IMG/VR virus record: IMGVR_UViG_2687453376_000003
Source: an uncultured virus (IMG/VR IMGVR_UViG_2687453376_000003)
Taxonomy: Duplodnaviria > Heunggongvirae > Uroviricota > Caudoviricetes
Length of the DNA: 64,000 bases
Reading direction: 5' to 3' (one strand)
Shown: positions 43,044-54,354 of the stretch, one piece after another
How positions within the stretch are numbered: the first letter of the stretch is position 1
Layout: every line of letters starts with the position of its first letter
Position numbers and translations under genes: made by a program
Notes under the pieces: model-generated
What the model was told of the DNA's origin: nothing
The model's input: the letters and a program-made list of their open reading frames with translations, nothing else
Databases searched by the model: none

Positions 43044-43371
43044 GCGAGAGCTTGACCAAGATGCGGCATTGAGTTTCGAGCTTTTTGCCGGAGATTTCGG
43101 CGGTGCCGATGATGTATCTCTGTCTAATAAAATAGTTAAAGGTCGCGGCGTATATTCCTGCTTTATCTGCGCTGGAGAAATCGCTATTGGTGAGCGGCAT
43201 CGCTATGCCGTTCATAAATTTGACGGTGAGATCATGACATACCGCTGTTGTAACGCATGCTGTGTAGCTATGGCTGATAGCGTCAATTGTGATTATGAAG
43301 ATGAAGATCCAATTGACGCTCGTTATGAGCTTGCTTTTCAACGCAGAAAAAATAGCCAGGAGGTGCGTTAA
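43036..43371 (+). CDS. Hypothetical Cys-rich (Zn-binding) protein
   Basis: GGAGG RBS; CFIC..I..GE, CCNACC. Confidence 0.7.
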   Translation: MTERELDQDAALSFELFAGDFGGADDVSLSNKIVKGRGVYSCFICAGEIAIGERHRYAVHKFDGEIMTYRCCNACCVAMADSVNCDYEDEDPIDARYELAFQRRKNSQEVR

Positions 43372-44201
43372 TGGCTAACTCATTCAAGCAAATGATTAAA
43401 AATGGCACTATCAAGCGCCGCGACAGCGGGATGTTCATCAATATGGATGATATCCACGTTAAAGAGGGTTTTAACAGACGCATTGAGAATGAGCGCAAGC
43501 ACAAGGCAGACGAGAAACTATTTCAGTTCCTGATGGCAGGAGGAACTGTACCACCTCTCGAAGTATATCCGCGTGATGAGGGCGGCGTATGGGTCGTCGA
43601 GGGTCACCGCCGTATGAATGCTTACCTACGCATCCGTGACGCGGGAAAACCAATCAGCGTGATCGCCATCACCCCATTCATTGGAAATGACGTAAAACGG
43701 TCAGCGCGAATCATTAATAGCAACAATGGCTCTGGCCAGCTCAAACTGAATCAGTACGAGGAAAGCCTCGTAGTGAAAGATCTGGCCGCCTTAAATCTGA
43801 AGCCTGATGAGATCGCCGCCGAGATCAACAGAAGCCGAACTCATGTCGATAAGCTGCTGTTCCTATGCTCAGCAAATCGCGATGTGCAGACTCTGGTCGA
43901 GTCTGGAGAAGTAGCTATGGACGTAGCTATTGAGCGCATCAAAGAACACGGGGAACGCGCCGGGGATGTACTGCAGGAGGACGTGAAGCGGGCGAAAGCC
44001 CAGGGGAAAAAGAAGGTCACGCGCAGCGTCACCGGCAGTCTGTTTAGCGCGACAAAATCGCGCCAGCTGGTTGAGCTGCTCAGCGATGCAGAGATCGATG
44101 GAGATGGACGCACCCTGGTCCTACGAGAAGGTATCGGAGAGGAAGTAATGCGGATTATCAACGAATACTCGCACTCTCCAGATAAAGGAGGAGCAAAATG
44201 A
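43371..44201 (+). CDS. ParB/Srx-like domain DNA-binding protein
   Basis: IHVKEGFNRR, VPPLEV, VVEGHRR, downstream HTH. Confidence 0.82.
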   Translation: MANSFKQMIKNGTIKRRDSGMFINMDDIHVKEGFNRRIENERKHKADEKLFQFLMAGGTVPPLEVYPRDEGGVWVVEGHRRMNAYLRIRDAGKPISVIAITPFIGNDVKRSARIINSNNGSGQLKLNQYEESLVVKDLAALNLKPDEIAAEINRSRTHVDKLLFLCSANRDVQTLVESGEVAMDVAIERIKEHGERAGDVLQEDVKRAKAQGKKKVTRSVTGSLFSATKSRQLVELLSDAEIDGDGRTLVLREGIGEEVMRIINEYSHSPDKGGAK

Positions 44202-44455
44202 ATAACACTATTCAGACTAGTCAATACTCTTTGGATGAGGCCATCATCCCCGATAAGACAATAGAATTGCTGACCGGATATAAAATTCCATCCAAACAAT
44301 GCAAGACCCTACGTGAAGCTGGCATTTTCTTCATTATTCGGCGAGATGGCCGCCCACGAACTACCTGGGCGCACTTCAATAACCCACTGTCTCATCGTCA
44401 AAGAATGCAGGATACCAACCCAACTCCAGAGCCGGATTTTGGAGCGCTTGACTGA
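44198..44455 (+). CDS. DUF4224 putative excisionase
   Basis: LTGYK.PSKQC..L...GI.F..RRDGRP.TTW, EPDFGAL; coupled to the integrase gene. Confidence 0.85.
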   Translation: MNNTIQTSQYSLDEAIIPDKTIELLTGYKIPSKQCKTLREAGIFFIIRRDGRPRTTWAHFNNPLSHRQRMQDTNPTPEPDFGALD

Positions 44456-45465
44456 TGCCCAGGATAAGAAAAAACAAAGATGATGCCTGGATGCCGCCCC
44501 GGGTGTATATGGGGCGATCCGCCTATGAGTTTCATCCAATAAATGGTGGAAATATCCGCTTATGCGATAAAACGGCGACACAGGCCCAGGTATGGGCTGC
44601 ATGGGAAGCATTGATTAACGAGAGACCAGACACCACAACATTGGCCGGACTGGTTGATAGGTTTTTTAAATCTGGTGATTTCTTCGAACTGGCGGCAGAG
44701 ACCCAAAAAGACTACCGGAAATATTCACGTAAGGTTCTGGATGTCTTCGGCAAAATGCCCCCCGACAGCGTTAAACCCGAACATGTCCGCAAATACCTGG
44801 ATATGCGAGGGGTAAAGAGCCGGACGCAGGCAAACAGGGAGAAGGCATTCATGTCACGTGTTTATCGCTGGGCATACGAACGCGGCTATGCGAAGGGTAA
44901 CCCCACTAAGGGCGTCAAGCAGTTCAAGGAAACCGGGAGAGATCGCTATATCACCCACGAAGAGTACAACGCGCTATATAGCGTCGCTCCGGATGTTGTG
45001 CGTGTTGCGATGGAGCTGGCTTATCTCTGCTGCGCACGCCAGAACGACGTGCTGGAAATGAAAAAAAGCCAGCTTATTGCGGAAGGGATACTGATTAAGC
45101 AGAGCAAAACCGCCGTAGCGCAGATAAAAGCATGGTCCGAACGGCTCAATGCTGCCATTACGATGGCGAAGGCACTCCCCCTCAATGCCGGGATGAGCAG
45201 CCTCTACGTGATCCACCAGGCATCCGGGCATAAGTATACCCGCGACGGTTTTAACAGCCGCTGGAGAAAAGCGAAGGAAGAAGCAAAAGAGCGATACCCC
45301 AAGTTGGACTTTAACTTCACCTTTCACGATCTGAAGGCTAAGGGGATCTCTGACCTGAAGGGGAACATCTACGAGAAGCAGGCCATTTCTGGCCACAAGA
45401 ACGTGGAGCAAACCGCTCGTTATGACCGAAGGATCCCGATCGTTCCGACGGTGGATGGGCAGTGA
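44455..45465 (+). CDS. int: Tyrosine integrase of prophage 1
   Basis: CARQND (R), QSKT (K), FHDLKAK, SGH, ARY; ends next to att. Confidence 0.95.
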   Translation: MPRIRKNKDDAWMPPRVYMGRSAYEFHPINGGNIRLCDKTATQAQVWAAWEALINERPDTTTLAGLVDRFFKSGDFFELAAETQKDYRKYSRKVLDVFGKMPPDSVKPEHVRKYLDMRGVKSRTQANREKAFMSRVYRWAYERGYAKGNPTKGVKQFKETGRDRYITHEEYNALYSVAPDVVRVAMELAYLCCARQNDVLEMKKSQLIAEGILIKQSKTAVAQIKAWSERLNAAITMAKALPLNAGMSSLYVIHQASGHKYTRDGFNSRWRKAKEEAKERYPKLDFNFTFHDLKAKGISDLKGNIYEKQAISGHKNVEQTARYDRRIPIVPTVDGQ

Positions 45466-45719: not shown

Positions 45720-46757
45720 TTAAATTCTGCTGCCATTTCTACTACCGCTTTTTTTCAAACTTTTTAAGTTATCAAATGGGTTCAAAGCTAACGCCGCATC
45801 CAAGTGATCGGGAGCAAAGTGTGCATAGCGCATTGTCATCGTAATCGTGCTATGGCCCAATATCTGCTGCAGTACCAGAATATTGCCGCCCTGCATCATA
45901 AAATGGCTGGCAAAGGTGTGGCGCAATACGTGGGTACGCTGTCCTTTCGGCAGGTGAAGCCCTGCCCGCGCCAGTGCGGCTTTGAAAGCTTCATAGCAGG
46001 GGATAAACAACCTTCCTTGCTTTGTAGGCAGCAGGGCCTGCAATTGTTCGGAAATTGGTACAGTGCGATTCTTTTTGCTCTTGGTATGGGTAAAGGTCAA
46101 TCGTCCAGGTAACACCTGCGATTGGCGCAACGACTGCGCCTCGCTCCAGCGCGCTCCGGTAGCCAGACATACCCGCACGATAACCCCCAAATCAGTCTTA
46201 CTCGATACATCGCAGGCAGCCAGCAAGTGCGTAATCTCATCGGCATATAAAAAAGCCAGCTCTTGATCCCCTTCGCGAAACTGGCGAATGCCATCGAGAG
46301 GATTACCCCCCTCCCACTCACCGAGCCTGCGCAGTTCAGCAAATACCGCATGCAGATAAGCCTGTTCACGGTTAACCGTGGCCTCCTGCAGGCGCTTTTT
46401 CCCCTTGGGATTCCACTCTCCGTTCAGCCGCCGCTCCCGATAACGGGCAAACATACCCTTATCAAAATCACCGGCCAATGGATCGCCAAGCCGCCGACAA
46501 ATTGCATCCAATTTTCCCTTACGCCCAGCGCCTGATGACAGCATCCTTCCATGTAACTCATACCAACGCAGAATCAAATCCGATAGATGAGTAGCTGACT
46601 CACCCATATCTAAACTTACTCCTTGCGGATTCATCCTACGCTCAAAAGCAAGGGCCTCTCCCCTGGTCGTAAATTGCCGGCGGATACGCTGGCCATCCCG
46701 CCCATAAGGGAAACATTGGCAAAGCCATTTTCCTGACGCCAATCTGCGGATTGTCAT
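45720..46757 (-). CDS. int: P2/HP1/186-family tyrosine integrase
   Basis: MTIRRLASGKW, TGARWSEA, TKSKKNR, HVLRHTFASHFMM, LGH, MRYAH. Confidence 0.95.
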   Translation of the reverse strand: MTIRRLASGKWLCQCFPYGRDGQRIRRQFTTRGEALAFERRMNPQGVSLDMGESATHLSDLILRWYELHGRMLSSGAGRKGKLDAICRRLGDPLAGDFDKGMFARYRERRLNGEWNPKGKKRLQEATVNREQAYLHAVFAELRRLGEWEGGNPLDGIRQFREGDQELAFLYADEITHLLAACDVSSKTDLGVIVRVCLATGARWSEAQSLRQSQVLPGRLTFTHTKSKKNRTVPISEQLQALLPTKQGRLFIPCYEAFKAALARAGLHLPKGQRTHVLRHTFASHFMMQGGNILVLQQILGHSTITMTMRYAHFAPDHLDAALALNPFDNLKSLKKSGSRNGSRI

Positions 46758-46794
46758 ATGCCACCACGCTTCGAAAGTCCGTTTCTGAAAACCA

Positions 46795-47388
46795 TTACCA
46801 CCATAGCCCCAGCAGAACACCCACGATAAACAGCACGCTGCACAGCAACGAGGCTCGATAGCGCTGCCTGAAAGGCGACGCTAACGCAGGTATATCGTCA
46901 CCAGCTTCCTCCTCCAGCCAAGCCAGCGCCTGGCGCAACTGGCTGCGGTTAAGTTCATGCAGATAGCTCGAACCAAACTGAATATGGCAATAGCGTTGCA
47001 GCTGCCGGCGTCGGATCGGTGTTGTCGCCCTCATCTGCAATAATCGAATAAGTGCCTTATCTGCACTCTTATCTCTGGCTCGCTTCAGCAATATTTGCAA
47101 GTAACCCCGCGCTGCCGGGTAATGACTTACCGTCAGCTCATCCACCCCATTAACACCCAGCTCAGCATAAACTTTTTGCCAGACGGTCATCCCCATGTCA
47201 TAGCCACAGTCTGTAATCTGCTGCACCAGCTGGTTCAGGCGCATACGCTGAGCGGGTACCAGTGGACGCAGATCTGACTGTGGCGCAGACAGAGTAATGT
47301 TGACCCAATAACGGCCGATATAGACGCTGCGCTCATAAAAATCGCGCCCCCCCACCCGATTGCGCCGCCCTCTTGCCTCCGTGACCAT
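46795..47388 (-). CDS. Hypothetical protein with C-terminal membrane anchor and N-terminal GRD motif
   Basis: GGAG RBS; two similar helical modules (ELGVNGVDELT / QFGSSYLHELN); hydrophobic C-terminus LLCSVLFIVGVLLGLWW. Confidence 0.72.
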   Translation of the reverse strand: MVTEARGRRNRVGGRDFYERSVYIGRYWVNITLSAPQSDLRPLVPAQRMRLNQLVQQITDCGYDMGMTVWQKVYAELGVNGVDELTVSHYPAARGYLQILLKRARDKSADKALIRLLQMRATTPIRRRQLQRYCHIQFGSSYLHELNRSQLRQALAWLEEEAGDDIPALASPFRQRYRASLLCSVLFIVGVLLGLWW

Positions 47389-47889
47389 AGCGTTCTCCAG
47401 ACTTATTGCTCATTTACTAAAATCGGAATACACAACAGGAATACATGGCTACTGCAGCAGTGTCACAAATAAAAACATGACACAAGCAATAAAGTGACTC
47501 TTACACCATTTTTAGCATAATTAAGTAGAGTGCCATACTTTATGATGAATAATGCTCATCTAGCCACAGGCAATATAAATAAAGCATAAAAATGAAATCG
47601 ACATTTTATATATCCAATGAAAATACTATTAGGTGCGGAATCATGGATATCTGCATAGGGAAGCATAGCCCAACGAAAAGCAAACCAAAAACACTCCTAT
47701 CATTATTTGAATCATTAGACAAATCATTATTAAATCAATTGGTTATCCAATCTAATAATTTGCCATCAAAAATCTTCTTGAATAACAACGCAAATATCTT
47801 ATATAAAACACAAACTTCATTTATCATTATTCCATTACATAAACCATATATTTAAATAATTTGCATGAGATATAAACAAGGATGTAATT

Positions 47890-48963
47890 ATGACGACAGA
47901 AAGAAACTATACCAGCCTAAATTTGGACAGAAACCTGATAACATCTGTCATTGACCGTTTTGTAACGGAGAACACTCTGGCAATCAGAGAACAAGGCAAC
48001 CGCCCAGGAGGGGAAGGAACACGCATTGTCATAGGGCGCGTAGGCATAGAAGATGCAACCGTTGATATCTACTTTAATCGGGATGGGACATCAACATTAC
48101 AATGGAAAATGGGAAAGAATAGGGAGTTAGGACTTGCGCTATCAGATGCGTTGTATGACACAATAAATCCAGATGAGTTTCAGTCAGTGAATATGACCAT
48201 CATCGGTGTAGCGCGAAATGATATTCAATCCATCATTGAGCTTATCCCCACCGATGACAATTTGATCTTTGAGGTAGCTGAAGAACCCATAGCAGCCGGT
48301 ATCCGTTGGCGGATCCGTTGTCAAAACCACGGAGACACATTGACAGTCACCCATTACACTTCGCGAAAACTACAGATCCAGGGCCGGCCCTTATCCAGCT
48401 ACAGAAAACTGGTCTACCTGCTCACTGACATTCTCGATCTGGTTGGGCTAGAAATGGTATTAAGCCGACAAGACGAGAGTGTTACAGAGATCGTCCGACA
48501 AGATGTCGCCGCCGAATTCCTGAAAAAAATGCTGCCTAACTCCTACGGTAACCTGCCCGACATCACCCGGAAATTGCTGGTATCTGGTCAGTGTGTTAAA
48601 CTCGCTGGCCCTGCATTGCCAGAGTACTCTATGCTGTTGTTTCCAGAGTTGCGCTCTTTGGAAGGAGCACTGAAGGCAAAGCTGGCTGAATGCGGATTTG
48701 ATTCAAATCAACATGATTTTGGCTACTTCTTTGAGCGGCAAGCGGATAGAAGCTTCCAGTTAAAAGCCTCTTTTAACGGACATATCACGGAGATTCAGCT
48801 AAGATCAACGCTGAGCGACGCGTACACGTTCTTCCATAAGCACCGTCATGGCTTGTTCCACATGGATAGCTTTGCGGAGAGTAGCCGTAAAATCACAGGG
48901 TTACAACAGTTGCTCAGTCTCTCAGAGACAGCTTACGAACACATAGACAAGCTATATCAATAA
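47890..48963 (+). CDS. rnlA: RnlA/LsoA family HEPN endoribonuclease toxin
   Basis: KLQIQGRP, EYSMLLFPELRSLEG, HEPN motif RHGLFH. Confidence 0.92.
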   Translation: MTTERNYTSLNLDRNLITSVIDRFVTENTLAIREQGNRPGGEGTRIVIGRVGIEDATVDIYFNRDGTSTLQWKMGKNRELGLALSDALYDTINPDEFQSVNMTIIGVARNDIQSIIELIPTDDNLIFEVAEEPIAAGIRWRIRCQNHGDTLTVTHYTSRKLQIQGRPLSSYRKLVYLLTDILDLVGLEMVLSRQDESVTEIVRQDVAAEFLKKMLPNSYGNLPDITRKLLVSGQCVKLAGPALPEYSMLLFPELRSLEGALKAKLAECGFDSNQHDFGYFFERQADRSFQLKASFNGHITEIQLRSTLSDAYTFFHKHRHGLFHMDSFAESSRKITGLQQLLSLSETAYEHIDKLYQ

Positions 48964-48964
48964 A

Positions 48965-49321
48965 ATGTTTAAATTCAGAGCGGGATCTGACATGACCTAC
49001 CCCATGCTTGTCGTAGCAACCAGCTACGAGAGCCCTTTGTCATATCTGGGCTCCATTGCCCAACATCTCAGGGACGAAGCATTTGAAGGTAGCGTTCTGT
49101 TCGACTTGCTCTGTACCAACGGATTAGAGGACAACCGCTTCGTTGCCCTGTACTTTGATGGCATGGACTTTGTCCGCAAAACCTTCCGTCTGGTTGATAA
49201 AGCCGACTTATCACCCGATCTTCTGCATACGCAGGATAAATTCTTTGCCGAGCATCCAGCTATTCTGCAAATGTCAGTCCTGACCCAGAATGAAGTGCAG
49301 GCCTTTACCGCCAGACATTGA
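48965..49321 (+). CDS. rnlB: RnlB/LsoB family antitoxin
   Basis: ATSYESPL, VLFDLLCTNG..NRF; directly after the toxin gene. Confidence 0.9.
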   Translation: MFKFRAGSDMTYPMLVVATSYESPLSYLGSIAQHLRDEAFEGSVLFDLLCTNGLEDNRFVALYFDGMDFVRKTFRLVDKADLSPDLLHTQDKFFAEHPAILQMSVLTQNEVQAFTARH

Positions 49322-49361
49322 TCCCGGGAACCGGAGCCATCCGGTTCTTGCCCCGCTGTTT

Positions 49362-49775
49362 TCAGTCCTTATGCTCATGGTAGTCACGGCCTGCGATACG
49401 CTGATCGCTGCCCCCGCTCACGATGACTGAGCTGGCCGCTGCACTGCCAGCTGCCAGGGCAGCAAGAGCCGCCGCCTTTACCGCTGGCGGTGCCGCACGA
49501 TAAAGTTTGATGAACTCCAATTCATCGGTACTAACATCTCCTATATCCGGCGTTCTACGTCCGGTTAAAACATACAAAATATCTATTCCATGCTTAGAAA
49601 GAATTGATAGATATAGCCCCCCAGGCATGTTATCGCCACGTTCATACCCTGCTTGGCCACTGCGCGAATGACCTGCCAATTTTGCAAACTCAGTCTGACT
49701 CAAGCCAAAGCGCTCTCGCTCTTCACGTAATCTAGCTCCCACAATGGCAAAAAAATGATCATTTTCATTTGACAT
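49362..49775 (-). CDS. XRE-family immunity repressor of element 2 (no peptidase domain)
   Basis: GARLREERERFGLSQ.EFA, YERG...P, GIDILYVLTG; divergent from cox. Confidence 0.88.
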   Translation of the reverse strand: MSNENDHFFAIVGARLREERERFGLSQTEFAKLAGHSRSGQAGYERGDNMPGGLYLSILSKHGIDILYVLTGRRTPDIGDVSTDELEFIKLYRAAPPAVKAAALAALAAGSAAASSVIVSGGSDQRIAGRDYHEHKD

Positions 49776-49835
49776 GATTAGTATACCGATCAAGGATAAC
49801 ATCCAAAGACATCCAACTAGGGACACTATACCACT

Positions 49836-50027
49836 ATGGAACAGACCAACCAGCCACCCCGCTCACGGCAGCAAAAGGGCATTGGATCCGGTGGACGTAT
49901 TGCCATGTACCTCAGCGACGCAGAACGCCGCCACTTAAACCAGCTGGCAGAGCAGGAGTGCCGCTCAGCCGCCAGTATGGCAAGGCTGATCTACCTACGG
50001 GGGCTACAGGCCGTTACCGAAAGCTAA
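49836..50027 (+). CDS. Small ribbon-helix-helix-like regulator
   Basis: RIAMYLS..E...L..LA..E.RS.ASMARLIY..GL. Confidence 0.7.
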   Translation: MEQTNQPPRSRQQKGIGSGGRIAMYLSDAERRHLNQLAEQECRSAASMARLIYLRGLQAVTES

Positions 50028-50039
50028 AGGAGCACAACG

Positions 50040-50249
50040 ATGGGGAACATCACTATTCACGTCACCGTCAATGCGCCATACGTCTCGATCAATGAATATG
50101 CGCGCCTTTCCGGTATTCCTGTTGCCACCTGCCGAGGCATGGTGGCCGATGGCCGTATCATCATTCGCCCCAAGAACGTGGCGCAGGAAAAAATCGAGGT
50201 CAATATGATTGCGATGCTGAAAGACGCCATCGCTAATAGCGGCCCGTAG
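50040..50249 (+). CDS. Cox/Apl-like regulator and excisionase
   Basis: AGGAG RBS; PYVSINEYARLSGIP..T.R.MV..GR.IIRPK...EVNM. Confidence 0.85.
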   Translation: MGNITIHVTVNAPYVSINEYARLSGIPVATCRGMVADGRIIIRPKNVAQEKIEVNMIAMLKDAIANSGP

Positions 50250-50318
50250 GCAATCAACCACTACAGTCAACAAATAACCCAGCCACCACCATTACTCACC
50301 ACTGCGGAGCCGTAATAA

Positions 50319-50426
50319 ATGAACATAATCAGAGCTGCCGCCGTCTTGGTGTTTGGCGTGCTGCTGCTGATCTCAGCATGCGCCAGTATTTTCTTTTTAT
50401 TGCTCTGTATCAGCAGCATGCAATAG
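50319..50426 (+). CDS. 35-aa hydrophobic peptide
   Basis: Not in ORF track; GGAG upstream; MNIIRAAAVLVFGVLLLISACASIFFLLLCISSMQ*. Confidence 0.4.
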   Translation: MNIIRAAAVLVFGVLLLISACASIFFLLLCISSMQ

Positions 50427-50481
50427 GCATATTGCAGCGCCATTTTCCCTATCAGCAACGACCCTTGGAGGAAACACCGGC

Positions 50482-50724
50482 ATGCAGTTGATAATTCCAC
50501 CTCTGTATCGCGGCGGTGAACTAGAACGCCAGGCTCGGGCAGCATTCAATCGAGTATTAACCGGCGATGACAGCCACATTCGCCGCCTTGAAGTATTACC
50601 CCGGGCCAGGGTGATTAATATCACCGACCGTTATCGGCTGTTCAGCCTAGATGAAGGAAATACATGGAAGCTGCTTAAACACCAACAATACACCAGGAAT
50701 ATACGCAAATGGCGCACACATTAA
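50482..50724 (+). CDS. Small ParE/RelE-like fold protein
   Basis: GGAGG RBS; VINITDRYRLFS.D.G.TW.LLKHQQY pattern. Confidence 0.55.
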   Translation: MQLIIPPLYRGGELERQARAAFNRVLTGDDSHIRRLEVLPRARVINITDRYRLFSLDEGNTWKLLKHQQYTRNIRKWRTH

Positions 50725-51245
50725 TTTTCAGTGAGGTACTAAAAAACGCCATTCTTGATGGCTGCAAAACCGTGACACGTCGCCCGATAAAATCTGCCTG
50801 TACCCGATCTGTCATTAAATCAGATCAGTGGTACTGGGAGACGGCCTTTAAGACCATGACCACCCTTCCTCTGCCGGAGAGTGACTGTGAGTTGGTTATC
50901 GCCGCCAACACCCCCGTTCTCATTAAAGCCTCGCGGGCGTTTATGATTTCACAGTGCCCTCATGGGAACGCAGGCGATCTCATTGAGCTGGCGACACGCC
51001 ACGCCGACCAATCCGTGACCCCATTCGCCCGTGCTGAACTAAAAACCATCGCCATCGAACTTCTCCATGACATCACCGACCAAGCCGCCATCGCCGAGGG
51101 TATGCCTCCGGACACTCCCCGGGAACATTTCCGCTGTATCTGGGATGGTTTCTACCATTACACCCCCTACAGCTGGCGCTGGAACCCGGCAGTTTGGGTA
51201 TTGCAGTTTGCACCGACCGAAATCTTAGCGGAGGCACACCGATGA
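50709..51245 (+). CDS. ASCH-like phage protein
   Basis: AILDG.KTVTRRPIK, LHDITDQAAIAEG, W..NPAVWVLQF. Confidence 0.8.
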   Translation: MAHTLIFSEVLKNAILDGCKTVTRRPIKSACTRSVIKSDQWYWETAFKTMTTLPLPESDCELVIAANTPVLIKASRAFMISQCPHGNAGDLIELATRHADQSVTPFARAELKTIAIELLHDITDQAAIAEGMPPDTPREHFRCIWDGFYHYTPYSWRWNPAVWVLQFAPTEILAEAHR

Positions 51246-51547
51246 AACGCCTATGGACAAAACAGGAGGAGCGACAGCTGGAGCAGGGGATCGCCGATGG
51301 CCAGAGCCTCAAAGCGATCGCCGAACAGCTGGGCCGCACCTATGCCTCCGTGAGCCAAAAGACCTACGTCATGGGGTTGCCACGCCGCGCCTTTTATATC
51401 GACCAATGGGATATCAATATGGCCCATGCCCTACGCGCCGAGGGGCTGACTCATCCAGCCATCGCCGAAAAGCTCGAGCTCAGGACTCGCACGATTGATT
51501 ACATCATCTACCACAAAAAACCAGATACCAACCATGCAGCCATGTAA
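51242..51547 (+). CDS. Double-HTH DNA-binding protein
   Basis: WTKQEE..L......G.S...IA..LGRT..SV; second HTH at the C-terminus. Confidence 0.7.
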   Translation: MKRLWTKQEERQLEQGIADGQSLKAIAEQLGRTYASVSQKTYVMGLPRRAFYIDQWDINMAHALRAEGLTHPAIAEKLELRTRTIDYIIYHKKPDTNHAAM

Positions 51548-51561
51548 CGCATCAACCCGCG

Positions 51562-54354
51562 GTGCCCCGTCGGCGCCCGCGGGTTTTATCGTTTATCCGC
51601 ACCGACGGAGGACTTTCTGTGCCTGAAAAACGTCACTTTGGCCGCTACTCCCCCAGTCCGCCACCGCCCTTCCCCGGCCGGCCAGCGGACACTCGCCGCT
51701 ACACCTGGGAGTGGCAGAAGCCTCGCCCCGCCATTTCCCCGCCCGAAGACTCCTTCACTGACGCCGCCGAGCAAGACGACAAGCGTCAGCGAGAGAGTTT
51801 TTGGCAGCAGTCCGAAGATGCCCTCGCCGCCGTACCGCAGTTTCTGCGCATGCGCATGATGCGGGCGCTCAAAACGACCACGTTCACCAAGGGCATCCCC
51901 ATGGCCCAGCTTAAGCTCAATGACCGTTTGCGCCGCGATGTACCCATTGTCAGCGCAGTGAATACCCAACACGCGCTCAACGCGCAGGGCCTGTTGCCGC
52001 TATCGACTAACGACGATCCCATTCATTGGGCGGATATGCAGTCACTGTCCGAGCGTTACAACACTCTGCCCAGCATGGCCGATGAAGAGATCGAGCTATT
52101 GGCGCAGGATATCGCTATTTACCTCCATGGCCAGTTGGCCGATCTCAGTGAGGCCGCCGACGCCCTGGATACTGACCATCAGGCGCAGCTGCTTTATGCC
52201 GAGACGGCCGCCATCGTGAAGCACTTTAAGCAGCAGCCCGTTACACGACAGTCCGACTTGGTGGAGACGGTCGTCGCCATCAACCGTATGCGCGATATCA
52301 AGTGGTGGCACACCCGGCTGCGCAAGGTGGCCCGCCGCTGGCGCGAGCACCTGCAGATAGCCTACGGCGACGTCTCCCGCAATCAGTCGCTGTTTTGCAG
52401 CGCACACTGGGTTTCCGCCTGGGAGAACCGGCGCCAGCGCACCCGCGCCATTCTTGAGCGGTTGGAGTTGGAAGATCAGGATACCGGCGAGCGTATTTCC
52501 CTGATGGAGCAGATCAATAAAAGCGTCTCTAACCCGGAGTTACGCCGTACGGAGCTGATGACGCGCATCGGCGGCTTTGAGCGTATAGCTAAAGACGCGG
52601 GCTACGTTGGGATGTTCTTCACCCTGACCGCCCCTTCCAAATATCACGCCCGCAACCACCAAGGCCACCGTAACCCAAAATGGTTGCGCGGTGGCCAGCC
52701 AACGCCGGCGCAAACCCAGAAATATTTCACCCGTCTGTGGTCACAGATCCGAACGGCGCTGAGCAGGGAAGAAATCCGCTACTTTGGCGTACGCGTGGTC
52801 GAGCCACACCACGACGGCACGCCGCACTGGCATGGCCTGCTCTTCGTCACCCCAGGGCAGGCCGATGCGTTGAGCGACATCATGCGCCAGTATGCCGTGC
52901 GCGAGGATGCCGACGAGCTGCAGACCAGGCACGGCGAACACCCGCGATTTTCAATGAAACCCATCGAGTCGGAATACGGCACGGCGACGGGCTATATCGT
53001 CAAATATATCTCTAAAAATATCGACGGCTATGCACTGGACGGTGAAGTTAGCGATGAGGGCAATAAGCCCTGCAAGCTGACCGCCCGGCACGCCACCGCC
53101 TGGGCCTCGCTGTGGGGTATCAAACAGTTTCAGTTTCTCGGCGGGGCGCCTGTGTCCGTCTGGCGTGAGCTACGCCGCCTGCACAATCAGGCGCTGGCCG
53201 ACGGCATCAGTCCCATCATGGGTGAGCTGCACAAGGCTGCCGATACCGGCGACTGGCAACAGTACGTCATACTGCAGGGCGGGCCCTTCGCCGCCCGCCG
53301 TGATCTCAAGCTACGCATCTACTACCAGGAGAAGAGCGAGCCGAACCAGTACGGCGAATACGCAAACGTCATCAAGGGGGTCTATCTCCAGCAGGCATTC
53401 AACATCTCGCCGGTCGAGACGCGCACGCGCAGCTGGTGCATCGTCAGGAGGAAGACACCTGAGCGGGCCGGCGCCAATCAGGGGGTTGACGTGGGTTTTG
53501 ACCTTACGGGCGCGTCCGCGCCCGCTAGGACTCGTGTCAATAACTGTACTCTGCACCAAAATATGGCAACGGCGTGTGGGAAAATACCGCCATCCGGCAT
53601 CCCCGAGCAGCTGACCATCGAGCACACGGCGTACCATTACCCCACCCTGGCGCAGCTGCGCCAGATGCCACCCCCTACCCCCGCTAACGGCACCGAGCTT
53701 GGTCTGCGTCTTTTCGACCTGGCCGATCTTATCGGACGTGGCGATCTACCCTCGCCGGCCAACGGCGTGCGCCGGGCAGATGAAACCCAGGAACAGGCCG
53801 ATGCCCGAGAAACACAACGCTTCATTGAGGCTCTGACCGAATCTGCCAGCCGTCGGCTCCGCACAGAAATGCTATGGCGCGAGAGCACCCCCTCTCGCCG
53901 GATGCCTGCGATCCCTGCCGACGGCGGCAACGTCGCCGAGCGGCGGGCCCGTATCCAGCAACGTATTCCGGCGGCGCAGCTGGAGATCACTCCGGAGGAG
54001 ATCGACTTACTAGCGCGCGGATGCGTGGTCCGCCTGGAGGATGGCCGCACCTACCGCGCCAGCCGCATCACGGGCGAACTGCTGCCGGTGACACACCCGC
54101 CACCGCTCAAGCGTATACCGGGGCGTATCAGAGAACAGCGCTGGCGCGCCAACCGCCGGGATCCCCGCACGCTGGCTCAGCAGTGCATCGAGCAATGGAA
54201 AGTCAAGCAGGCAGAACTGCAGAAAAAATCCACTATTGCGCCTTGCGAGTTGAACAATGAAGGAGGCGATGCAGCCAACAGTAAGAACTGCGATCAAGTG
54301 ACGTCATTCGTCTCCAGATTGAAAAAAGCGGCGCAAAGAAATGAGAGTGCGTGA
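51562..54354 (+). CDS. P2 gpA-family rolling-circle replication endonuclease
   Basis: TLTAPSKYH, EPHHDGTPHWH (HUH), YIVKYISKN, QFQFLGGAPVSVWRELRR; alternative start GTG 51619 after GGAGG. Confidence 0.95.
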   Translation: MPRRRPRVLSFIRTDGGLSVPEKRHFGRYSPSPPPPFPGRPADTRRYTWEWQKPRPAISPPEDSFTDAAEQDDKRQRESFWQQSEDALAAVPQFLRMRMMRALKTTTFTKGIPMAQLKLNDRLRRDVPIVSAVNTQHALNAQGLLPLSTNDDPIHWADMQSLSERYNTLPSMADEEIELLAQDIAIYLHGQLADLSEAADALDTDHQAQLLYAETAAIVKHFKQQPVTRQSDLVETVVAINRMRDIKWWHTRLRKVARRWREHLQIAYGDVSRNQSLFCSAHWVSAWENRRQRTRAILERLELEDQDTGERISLMEQINKSVSNPELRRTELMTRIGGFERIAKDAGYVGMFFTLTAPSKYHARNHQGHRNPKWLRGGQPTPAQTQKYFTRLWSQIRTALSREEIRYFGVRVVEPHHDGTPHWHGLLFVTPGQADALSDIMRQYAVREDADELQTRHGEHPRFSMKPIESEYGTATGYIVKYISKNIDGYALDGEVSDEGNKPCKLTARHATAWASLWGIKQFQFLGGAPVSVWRELRRLHNQALADGISPIMGELHKAADTGDWQQYVILQGGPFAARRDLKLRIYYQEKSEPNQYGEYANVIKGVYLQQAFNISPVETRTRSWCIVRRKTPERAGANQGVDVGFDLTGASAPARTRVNNCTLHQNMATACGKIPPSGIPEQLTIEHTAYHYPTLAQLRQMPPPTPANGTELGLRLFDLADLIGRGDLPSPANGVRRADETQEQADARETQRFIEALTESASRRLRTEMLWRESTPSRRMPAIPADGGNVAERRARIQQRIPAAQLEITPEEIDLLARGCVVRLEDGRTYRASRITGELLPVTHPPPLKRIPGRIREQRWRANRRDPRTLAQQCIEQWKVKQAELQKKSTIAPCELNNEGGDAANSKNCDQVTSFVSRLKKAAQRNESA
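53518..53549 (+). other. Probable P2-type rolling-circle origin inside gene A
   Basis: GCGCCCGCTAGGACTCGTGTCAATAACTGTAC resembles the P2 ori (GCGCCTCGGAGTCCTGTCAATAACTG) at the equivalent VNNC position. Confidence 0.65.

Follow-up and report, generated by a model that had tools for sequence, protein, structure and literature searches.

A terminal peptide shared by the repressor and a membrane-anchored partner protein in P2-like and Mu-like prophages: a possible link between lysogeny control and the cell membrane

The immunity region of a P2-like prophage, carried in a 64,000-nucleotide stretch of DNA from an uncultured virus of the Caudoviricetes (IMG/VR record IMGVR_UViG_2687453376_000003; this whole stretch is called the window below), encodes a small repressor, P0001, whose last residues closely resemble the first residues of a second protein, P0002, that is predicted to be anchored in the membrane. 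Matching "tail" and "head" copies of a short motif recur at the C-terminus and N-terminus of neighbouring gene products in many other phages, and where the motif belongs to a different class the two copies change class together. This tail-head pairing, as read from sequence, points to a physical connection of lysogeny control with the cell membrane. The interpretation that we favor, at a probability of roughly 60%, is one of like-with-like binding between tail and head through beta strands, by which the membrane partner would tether, titrate or release the repressor, with the motif classes serving as address codes.

The repressor gene (49362..49775, minus strand) specifies 137 amino acids from an ATG at 49775, and an alternative upstream GTG at 49826 would lengthen the product by 17 residues. 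The protein ends ...SSVIVSGGSDQRIAGRDYHEHKD directly before the stop codon (also given as ...VSGGSDQRIAGRDYHEHKD and ...VIVSGGSDQRIAGRDYHEHKD), and the tail motif itself, VIVSGGSDQRIAGRDYHE, occupies residues 117-134 (49374..49427, minus strand), leaving only HKD and the stop codon beyond it. The partner gene (46795..47388, minus strand; 197 amino acids) begins MVTEARGRRNRVGGRDFYERS (also given as MVTEARGRRNRVGGRDFYE), with the head motif VTEARGRRNRVGGRDFYE at residues 2-19 (47332..47385, minus strand). An earlier note on this DNA had drawn attention to 13 aligned residues, GSDQRIAGRDYHE in the repressor (49412-49374) and GRRNRVGGRDFYE in the partner (47370-47332), and the translations place both peptides exactly there. 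Six of the 13 residues are identical and four more are conservative replacements. At the nucleotide level 20 of 39 positions agree, and the same codon is used for just one of the six identical residues; because so few nucleotides and codons are shared, the likeness is one of protein rather than DNA, again as the earlier note proposed. The shared motif therefore stands, and only its length needs revision, being about 17-18 residues in the class found here (the AGRD class) and about 25 in a sister class.

How unusual such a match is within one genome was gauged by scoring the C-terminal 20 residues of the repressor against the N-terminal 30 of each of 18,287 open reading frames (ORFs) of at least 60 amino acids, taken from all six frames of the 4.34-Mb genome. 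The partner scored 38 and ranked second, against a median of 13 and a 99.9th percentile of 31; the top-ranked ORF start lies elsewhere, on contig C6. A six-frame scan of the genome with the pattern [AGS]GRD[FYW].[EDNQ] returned seven ORFs, and the extended motif is found at a terminus only in the repressor and the partner. On sequence grounds, then, the match within this genome alone is suggestive, being unusual and not decisive. A separate 217-codon ORF on contig C39 ends ...GHMGSGRDFRNIA, with a C-terminal GRDF and no extended motif, and is probably a chance occurrence.

It is the comparison of sequences across phages that puts the tail-head match beyond chance. In Escherichia phage 520873 (Peduoviridae, Xuanwuvirus), which has the same gene order as the window, the repressor tail reads ...ISGGNNRIAGRDYNETKGR and an ORF 16 nucleotides further on starts MAVNSNGSNNRVAGRDFHE. 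In the Mu-like Pseudomonas phage B3, ORF18 ends ...VTGDGNRTAGRDFHERKE and ORF20, 5 nucleotides on, starts MNIEVTGSNNIVAGRDFIE; within the phage collection this B3-type repressor with its partner was found in B3 and Ps59 only. When viral contigs were scanned for codon patterns that encode N-R-[IV]-A-G-R-D-[YF], 108 stretches came up, and 80 of these were fetched. Of the 80 loci, 78 have the motif at one end of a protein, the two exceptions (L015 and L065) having the look of chance matches, and by manual count 74 of the 78 have an ORF with the motif at its end lying within about 150 nucleotides upstream of an ORF with the motif at its start (one locus, L067, was included by eye, as its AGHD tail falls outside the regular expression). 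Many fetched loci are near-copies of one another, and removal of duplicates left 39 distinct AGRD-type tails, every one of them from a locus that also holds a head. A matching head begins within 330 nucleotides downstream of 36 of these 39 tails, and the usual gap between the two genes is 3-22 nucleotides. Ungapped BLOSUM62 scores for cognate tails and heads run from 43 to 79, compared to a background median of about 21. The three tails lacking a nearby head are those of the window, L044 and L049, and in all three loci other genes are interposed. The expectation that the pairing should be kept in homologous immunity regions is thus borne out in both P2-like and Mu-like phages, and to judge from these sequences the module is widespread among such temperate phages of the Proteobacteria.

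As a control the pattern was also run against 596 Gb of bacterial genomes, for which the number of chance matches is estimated at more than 100, and the first 120 matches were taken. Most of them are internal to an ORF or belong to short ORFs. A tail is present upstream of seven of the 24 matches that are N-terminal, and in each of these seven the motif is the extended one; the other 17 lack an upstream tail. These results bear on the simplest alternative, namely that the likeness has no function and is either accidental or left over from a duplication, or from a single gene divided by the rnlAB insertion described below. Such an origin could appeal to the fact that in this genome the partner ranks only second of the 18,287 ORF starts, with 6 of 13 residues identical. 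It is hard to reconcile with the recurrence of the pairing in adjacent, separately translated genes of many phages that use different codons, with the co-variation by class described next, or with the chance core-motif matches of the bacterial control, which have no paired neighbour. We consider it very improbable. The specific proposal of a single gene split by insertion was rejected, as the two copies occur in adjacent genes with their own starts; direct repeats serving an in-frame deletion were rejected as well, since the codons differ and the copies are spaced 87, 86 and 211 nucleotides apart. That spacing is not always in frame, so the copies are not fusion or deletion repeats, which counts equally against a functionless relic.

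The AGRD-type tail has the consensus [IV]x[VI][ST]GxGN[RQ][IV]AGRD[YF]xE and is found at the C-terminus of 18 of the best 150 repressor homologues, or 23 when AGRD[LMI] variants are counted; G-rich tails of several kinds occur among these homologues. Heads of partners related to P0002, whose central domain resembles Flk (see below), fall into two classes, the AGRD class and the GQ class of about 25 residues (FHGxVGQxxAGxxxNxxGxxxN). The loci of the GQ class were fetched through the partner body rather than through the tail, and their upstream repressor is always GQ-tailed. Among 68 distinct pairs with an Flk-like partner, 38 are AGRD/AGRD, 23 are GQ/GQ, six have neither motif on either side, one has a frameshifted partner, and none is mixed (overlaps between regular expressions were resolved by eye, and the tree labels agree). 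Every other kind of G-rich tail examined is likewise mirrored downstream, as in gp21/gp22 of phiE202, Ralstonia YO009_3, and L118, L123 and L130, the last three being genomes picked by their helix-turn-helix (HTH) profile alone. A mirrored neighbour was not seen for repressor homologues with helical tails. In composition the motifs are enriched in G (2.4-2.6-fold), N (1.7-2-fold) and V (1.5-2-fold) and poor in P (at most 0.7%, against 4.2% in the background) and L (1-4%, against 9%); Q is enriched in the GQ class only, I is not enriched, and K is depleted in the AGRD class only.

Matched classes also bear on the possibility that tail and head never touch each other and are both read by the same third molecule, such as a protease or adaptor, a chaperone or a phage protein. 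Disordered terminal peptides are typical of degrons, and a membrane-bound copy could act as a decoy that competes at FtsH, in the manner of lambda CIII, which shields CII from this protease. Degradation of a phage regulator by membrane proteases also has a precedent in the CII protein of phage 186, which is described, in the accessible part of the report, as a substrate of FtsH and RseP (PMC7708051). Against this stands the occurrence of several motif classes in prophages attributed to one host species: both AGRD and GQ classes are present in proteins assigned by their sources to Pseudomonas aeruginosa, which argues against a single host factor that reads the motif. Furthermore, no third gene is common to the P2-like and Mu-like loci, and the co-variation is most simply explained by like binding like. 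A shared third-party site accordingly seems quite unlikely to us.

The repressor itself matches Pfam HTH_3 (1.4e-07) and PHROG families of transcriptional regulators and repressors, and is an XRE/HTH repressor of the immunity type. Its AF2 model (mean pLDDT 83) consists of the HTH domain (residues 1-71), two helices (83-94 and 97-111) and a disordered tail (112-137) with a pLDDT of about 50, and a tail that is disordered in the monomer model is what would be expected of such a peptide. Pfam detects HTH domains and no S24 peptidase domain in P0001, in agreement with the earlier note, and the repressor is in this respect unlike the SOS-cleavable proteins of the LexA/CI type.

The partner is predicted to consist of three parts: the head, a helical cytoplasmic domain and a C-terminal membrane anchor. 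Its AF2 model has a beta-hairpin-like head of low confidence (residues 1-40), a confident helical domain (residues 41-163, pLDDT >90; 46900..47268, minus strand), a linker and a terminal hydrophobic helix (residues 172-197, 46798..46875, minus strand; helix 172-196 in the model). That last feature bears out the C-terminal transmembrane segment proposed earlier, and being of the tail-anchor type it would hold the protein in the membrane with the remainder, including the head, in the cytoplasm. The protein matches PHROG 5825, a family without assigned function, over residues 1-194 (1.6e-50). The family comprises 185 homologous clusters of 171-239 amino acids, none of them fused to an HTH domain, from hosts that include Yersinia, Pectobacterium, Dickeya, Erwinia, Serratia and Pseudomonas. 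Among the 120 family members listed, a GRD-type motif falls within the first 40 residues of 90 and a hydrophobic 17-mer within the last 40 of 105; P0002 alone of the 120 has Gly for the Ala of RVAGRD, giving RVGGRD. Residues G14, R15 and D16 are invariant in head alignments A1 and A3.

The helical domain is distantly related to the N-terminal part of Flk. Residues 36-160 of P0002 align with positions 24-148 of the 339-position NCBIfam model NF007987 (7.4e-17), at 61.6 bits against a cut-off of 353, so that P0002 falls far short of a full-length Flk; a second match to the model was not found in this genome. Relatives of the partner are labelled "hypothetical", "membrane protein" or "flagella biosynthesis regulator" in their sources, and the last of these labels is probably an over-annotation. 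A Foldseek search with the helical domain gave no match at E 0.001 or better. For its first three helices (residues 38-109) VIA-align offered weak superpositions on phage recombination proteins, namely NinB (Z 7.5), the Sak C-terminal domain (Z 7.4) and the Red-beta C-terminal domain (Z 7.1), and these candidates were set aside as lying within the tool's noise for helical models. P0002 has no sequence relative in the PDB and no match among the PADLOC defence models or in a local copy of Pfam.

Heads also occur on proteins unrelated to P0002. One group comprises proteins of 118-146 amino acids, most with a CxxC..CxxC arrangement before the hydrophobic segment and some without; others are ORF20 of B3, whose C-terminal half has a long hydrophobic region, the L215 type, and a partner encoded on a Herbaspirillum plasmid. 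Across the partners (118-247 amino acids) the domain between head and membrane segment is helical or Zn-ribbon-like, and neither an NTPase nor a repeat domain was seen in them. The constant elements thus appear, from sequence, to be the head and the membrane anchor, and the middle appears exchangeable. In a set made up of P0241, L268, L270, L295 and L296, some partners have composite heads in which the AGRD motif is followed by a second, IKIQGNGGNINFG-type motif, and one subgroup has a helical extension at the N-terminus ahead of an internal motif; both variants are outside the simple tail-head model.

That partners so diverse, all of those examined but L025, have a hydrophobic segment can be taken to favor control in the reverse direction. 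In this alternative the membrane partner is itself the effector, for example in superinfection exclusion or abortive infection, and the repressor tail caps the head, which is thereby kept from acting; loss or titration of the repressor would free the heads, which would then self-associate and act on the membrane. Membrane proteins encoded beside repressor genes in lysogeny operons are often exclusion factors, and in amyloid signalling the protein that acts on the membrane is the activated one. The repressor transcript of phage Fc02 is also described, in the portion of that report available, as including exclusion genes. No PADLOC defence model matches the partner, however; a single tail-anchor helix would make a poor pore former, and the large conserved cytoplasmic helical domain suggests binding or sensing rather than membrane damage. 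We regard this reversed arrangement as rather doubtful.

Direct binding of tail and head, with control running from the membrane partner to the repressor, accounts for these features most simply. The flexible C-terminal tail of the repressor carries a G/N/V-rich motif of about 18 residues, and the partner, with the same motif in its first residues, would be anchored in the inner membrane with that motif toward the cytoplasm. The tail would pair directly with the head by beta-strand pairing of like with like, and through this contact the membrane partner would tether, titrate or release part of the repressor pool. The availability of the repressor would in this way be coupled to the state of the partner and hence, presumably, to some physiological signal, and the AGRD, GQ and other classes would act as address codes that prevent cross-talk between co-resident prophages.

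Several observations weigh against this model. Both proteins are encoded in the lysogeny row, and therefore simple sequestration, if it were not regulated, would counteract repression. For tails of the AGRD class the cognate head never scores highest, ranking 2-34 of 70, so co-variation between individual pairs within that class was rejected and the co-variation is by class, not by pair; one suggestive case of pair-level co-variation comes from L215 (VQINFG.. vs VQINLG..). The partner tree provides only two independent contrasts, both in the same direction but not significant (sign test p = 0.5), and independent support appears to come mainly from the unrelated partner families. Fused forms of HTH domain and partner number zero among 185 clusters of 108-406 amino acids, and likewise zero at 407-2000 amino acids, where the absence is weak evidence. 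One locus, L025 (1336-2495), has a head-bearing partner relative with no membrane segment beside an HTH gene with no tail, and in L295 and L296 the motif is internal, following an N-terminal helical extension, and the upstream protein has no tail. Finally, two RNA-seq runs from one study gave contigs over the repressor gene and rnlB at a depth of 120-165 and none over the partner gene, where a consensus promoter was also not found upstream. The partner may be poorly expressed here, but a missing contig proves little, as contigs show neither strand nor absence.

The earlier note went further than binding and suggested an amyloid-like switch. The motif composition and the layout resemble those of bacterial amyloid signalling motifs, and templated assembly is therefore possible: heads clustered at the membrane might form a cross-beta template that recruits the tails into a self-propagating polymer, with inactivation of the repressor and induction independent of the SOS response. 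The placement of one motif at a C-terminus and its copy at the N-terminus of the adjacent gene's product is that of the fungal HRAM and bacterial BASS pairs. The enrichment of G, N and V and the depletion of P and L also fit BASS motifs, which the available text of the preprint of Dyrka et al. describes as beta-prone stretches of about 25 residues, rich in G/N/Q/V/I and poor in K/P/L, and the GQ class has just this typical length. The repressor tail is disordered in the monomer model, and amyloid signalling works in Escherichia coli in the case of Bab/Agp, as far as the accessible part of the published account goes. On the other side, the AGRD motif, at 17-18 residues, is short, and its invariant R and D are charged; the partner lacks a NOD or a repeat sensor, and nothing is known that would oligomerise it; neither pseudo-repeats in the tails nor all-in-one fusions were found; and lysogens make the two proteins at the same time, so that a conversion able to propagate itself would put them at risk. 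The terminal-motif layout upholds that part of the earlier suggestion, and the composition resembles that of BASS motifs in part; the pair is not a member of the described BASS systems (see below), and we consider amyloid-type signalling by this pair unlikely. Its boldest form seems slightly less likely again: a membrane sensor would convert the repressor via a prion-like self-templating peptide, providing an envelope-linked switch for induction or exclusion in P2-like and Mu-like phages whose repressors are not SOS-cleavable, with the motif classes as orthogonal address codes that allow several prophages per cell to have independent switches.

In the window the two genes are separated by about 2 kb of cargo of lower G+C content (47389..49361), consisting of an AT-rich leader (47389-47889, G+C 0.24-0.33) and the toxin-antitoxin genes rnlA (47890-48963, plus strand; Pfam RnlA N, core, DBD and HEPN domains) and rnlB (48965-49321, plus strand; Pfam RnlB antitoxin). 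With the pair only 3-22 nucleotides apart as a rule, and with the rnlAB region lower in G+C, the proposal of the earlier note that the two genes were adjacent before rnlAB inserted is well supported. The insert is present in the relatives L003-L005, of which L004 and L005 keep rnlB only. The junction between repressor and partner genes is a recurrent site for cargo: besides rnlAB here, it holds an orphan rnlB antitoxin gene in an 866-nucleotide gap in L004 and L005 (2135-3000; 90% identical), two small ORFs of unassigned function in L044, and an ORF of 135 amino acids with a hydrophobic N-terminus in L049.

Despite its separation the pair is still under purifying selection. In comparison with a 90%-identical relative, both genes are intact, dN/dS is 0.20 for the partner and 0.25 for the repressor, and neither head nor tail has changed. 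Comparison of the repressor gene with that of L004 (49362-49775 vs 1745-2134) reveals a mosaic, the HTH half of the protein (residues 1-70) being strongly different and its C-terminal half and tail almost identical, which suggests, from the sequences, that the DNA-binding module alone was exchanged. The RNA-seq contigs mentioned above (48609-49834) run unbroken from the repressor gene through rnlB into the 3' end of rnlA, so one of the two transcription units must read antisense through the other. The raw-read run X18 had no reads on the segment, and run X1 gave all of it in a single 8.4-kb contig that may reflect DNA carry-over or the source sample and hence carries no information on expression.

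The surrounding region, 45720-54354, is the immunity and early end of the P2-like prophage as judged by ORFs, Pfam and PHROG. The switch consists of the repressor gene and two divergent early genes on the plus strand, one for an Arc-like repressor (49836-50027; PHROG 3431, 8e-19) and one for a Cox-like excisionase/repressor (50040-50249; PHROG 575, 4e-24), as in P2-like switches. The leftward lysogeny row ends with the prophage integrase gene (45720..46820, minus strand; Pfam Int_N and Phage_integrase), whose start is overlapped by the partner gene, and the gpA replication gene, on the plus strand, lies beyond the early genes; this arrangement is that of P2-like (Peduoviridae) immunity regions. 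The early rightward row also includes an ORF of 80 amino acids with a ParE-like toxin domain (50482-50724, plus strand; Pfam 2.7e-09), for which no obvious antitoxin was called. A second tyrosine integrase gene (44455-45465) follows a DUF4224 gene and a ParB-HTH-like gene within 43371-45465 (plus strand), beside the integrase end of the prophage, and this segment may be another integrative element in tandem.

What tells P2-like and Mu-like prophages, whose repressors do not cleave themselves, when to leave the host has been a long-standing gap. A conserved membrane protein that carries a copy of the repressor tail might supply that input, or might form an additional layer of immunity or exclusion, and either role is open to direct test. 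Paired terminal motifs on neighbouring genes would then extend from cell-death immunity to gene regulation, and small, swappable peptide tags for tethering transcription factors to membranes would follow. Should the prion-like interpretation be true, the pair would be the first amyloid-type signalling device to govern a transcription factor and the lysis-lysogeny decision. No published description of the pairing between repressor tail and partner head was found in the literature, and neither the available text of the BASS preprint nor that of PMC12261475 uses the words repressor, HTH or phage. Its components have been seen side by side: the KS5 genome paper places a repressor and a "membrane protein" next to each other without comment. 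In Fc02, according to the accessible part of that report, RepC is a verified beetrevirus repressor and the downstream gene e4 is co-transcribed with it in the lysogen.

The closest parallels in layout are the BASS and HRAM systems (HET-S/NWD2 in fungi; BASS1-10, with Bell-domain proteins and NLRs; and BASS11, Bab/Agp). Here as there, a short motif rich in G and N and poor in P and L is found at the C-terminus of one protein and the N-terminus of the adjacent gene's product, several motif classes are matched within pairs, and one member acts at the membrane. The C-terminal copy in the present case, however, is on a DNA-binding XRE-HTH phage repressor rather than a death or immune effector (HeLo, Bell, TIR or CHAT), the N-terminal copy is on a small membrane protein rather than an oligomerising NLR/STAND or TPR sensor (the TPR type as in Agp), the process is a lysogeny switch rather than immunity, and the main motif is shorter, with an invariant G-R-D. 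Since the partner is no oligomerising sensor of the NLR type and the repressor no death effector, the pair does not belong to the described BASS systems. Flk, the enterobacterial regulator of the flagellar export switch, resembles the partner in being a tail-anchored membrane protein that faces the cytoplasm; the partner differs in its length (197 residues against a model of 339 positions), in its score far below the cut-off and in being a prophage gene product.

The SinI/SinR pair of Bacillus subtilis provides a parallel in mechanism, in that the antagonist SinI copies the oligomerisation segment of the repressor. In both cases a small protein encoded beside an XRE-type repressor copies its C-terminal interaction segment and can, or in our case might, pair with it. 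The Sin segment is helical and SinI is soluble, whereas the present pair has a disordered, beta-prone terminal peptide and a membrane-anchored partner, and the two systems are not homologous. In CTXphi the antirepressor RstC inactivates the repressor RstR by sequestration or aggregation. Qtip of vibriophage VP882 is likewise an antirepressor that acts by sequestration or aggregation, according to the part of the report available (10.1101/2019.12.16.877910). These two systems resemble the proposed one in that the repressor is removed by relocation or assembly rather than by cleavage, independently of the SOS response. Qtip and RstC differ in sharing no motif with their repressors, in being soluble and in being made on induction only, whereas the partner described here has a copy of the repressor tail, is predicted to be membrane-bound and is encoded in the lysogeny row together with the repressor that it may control.

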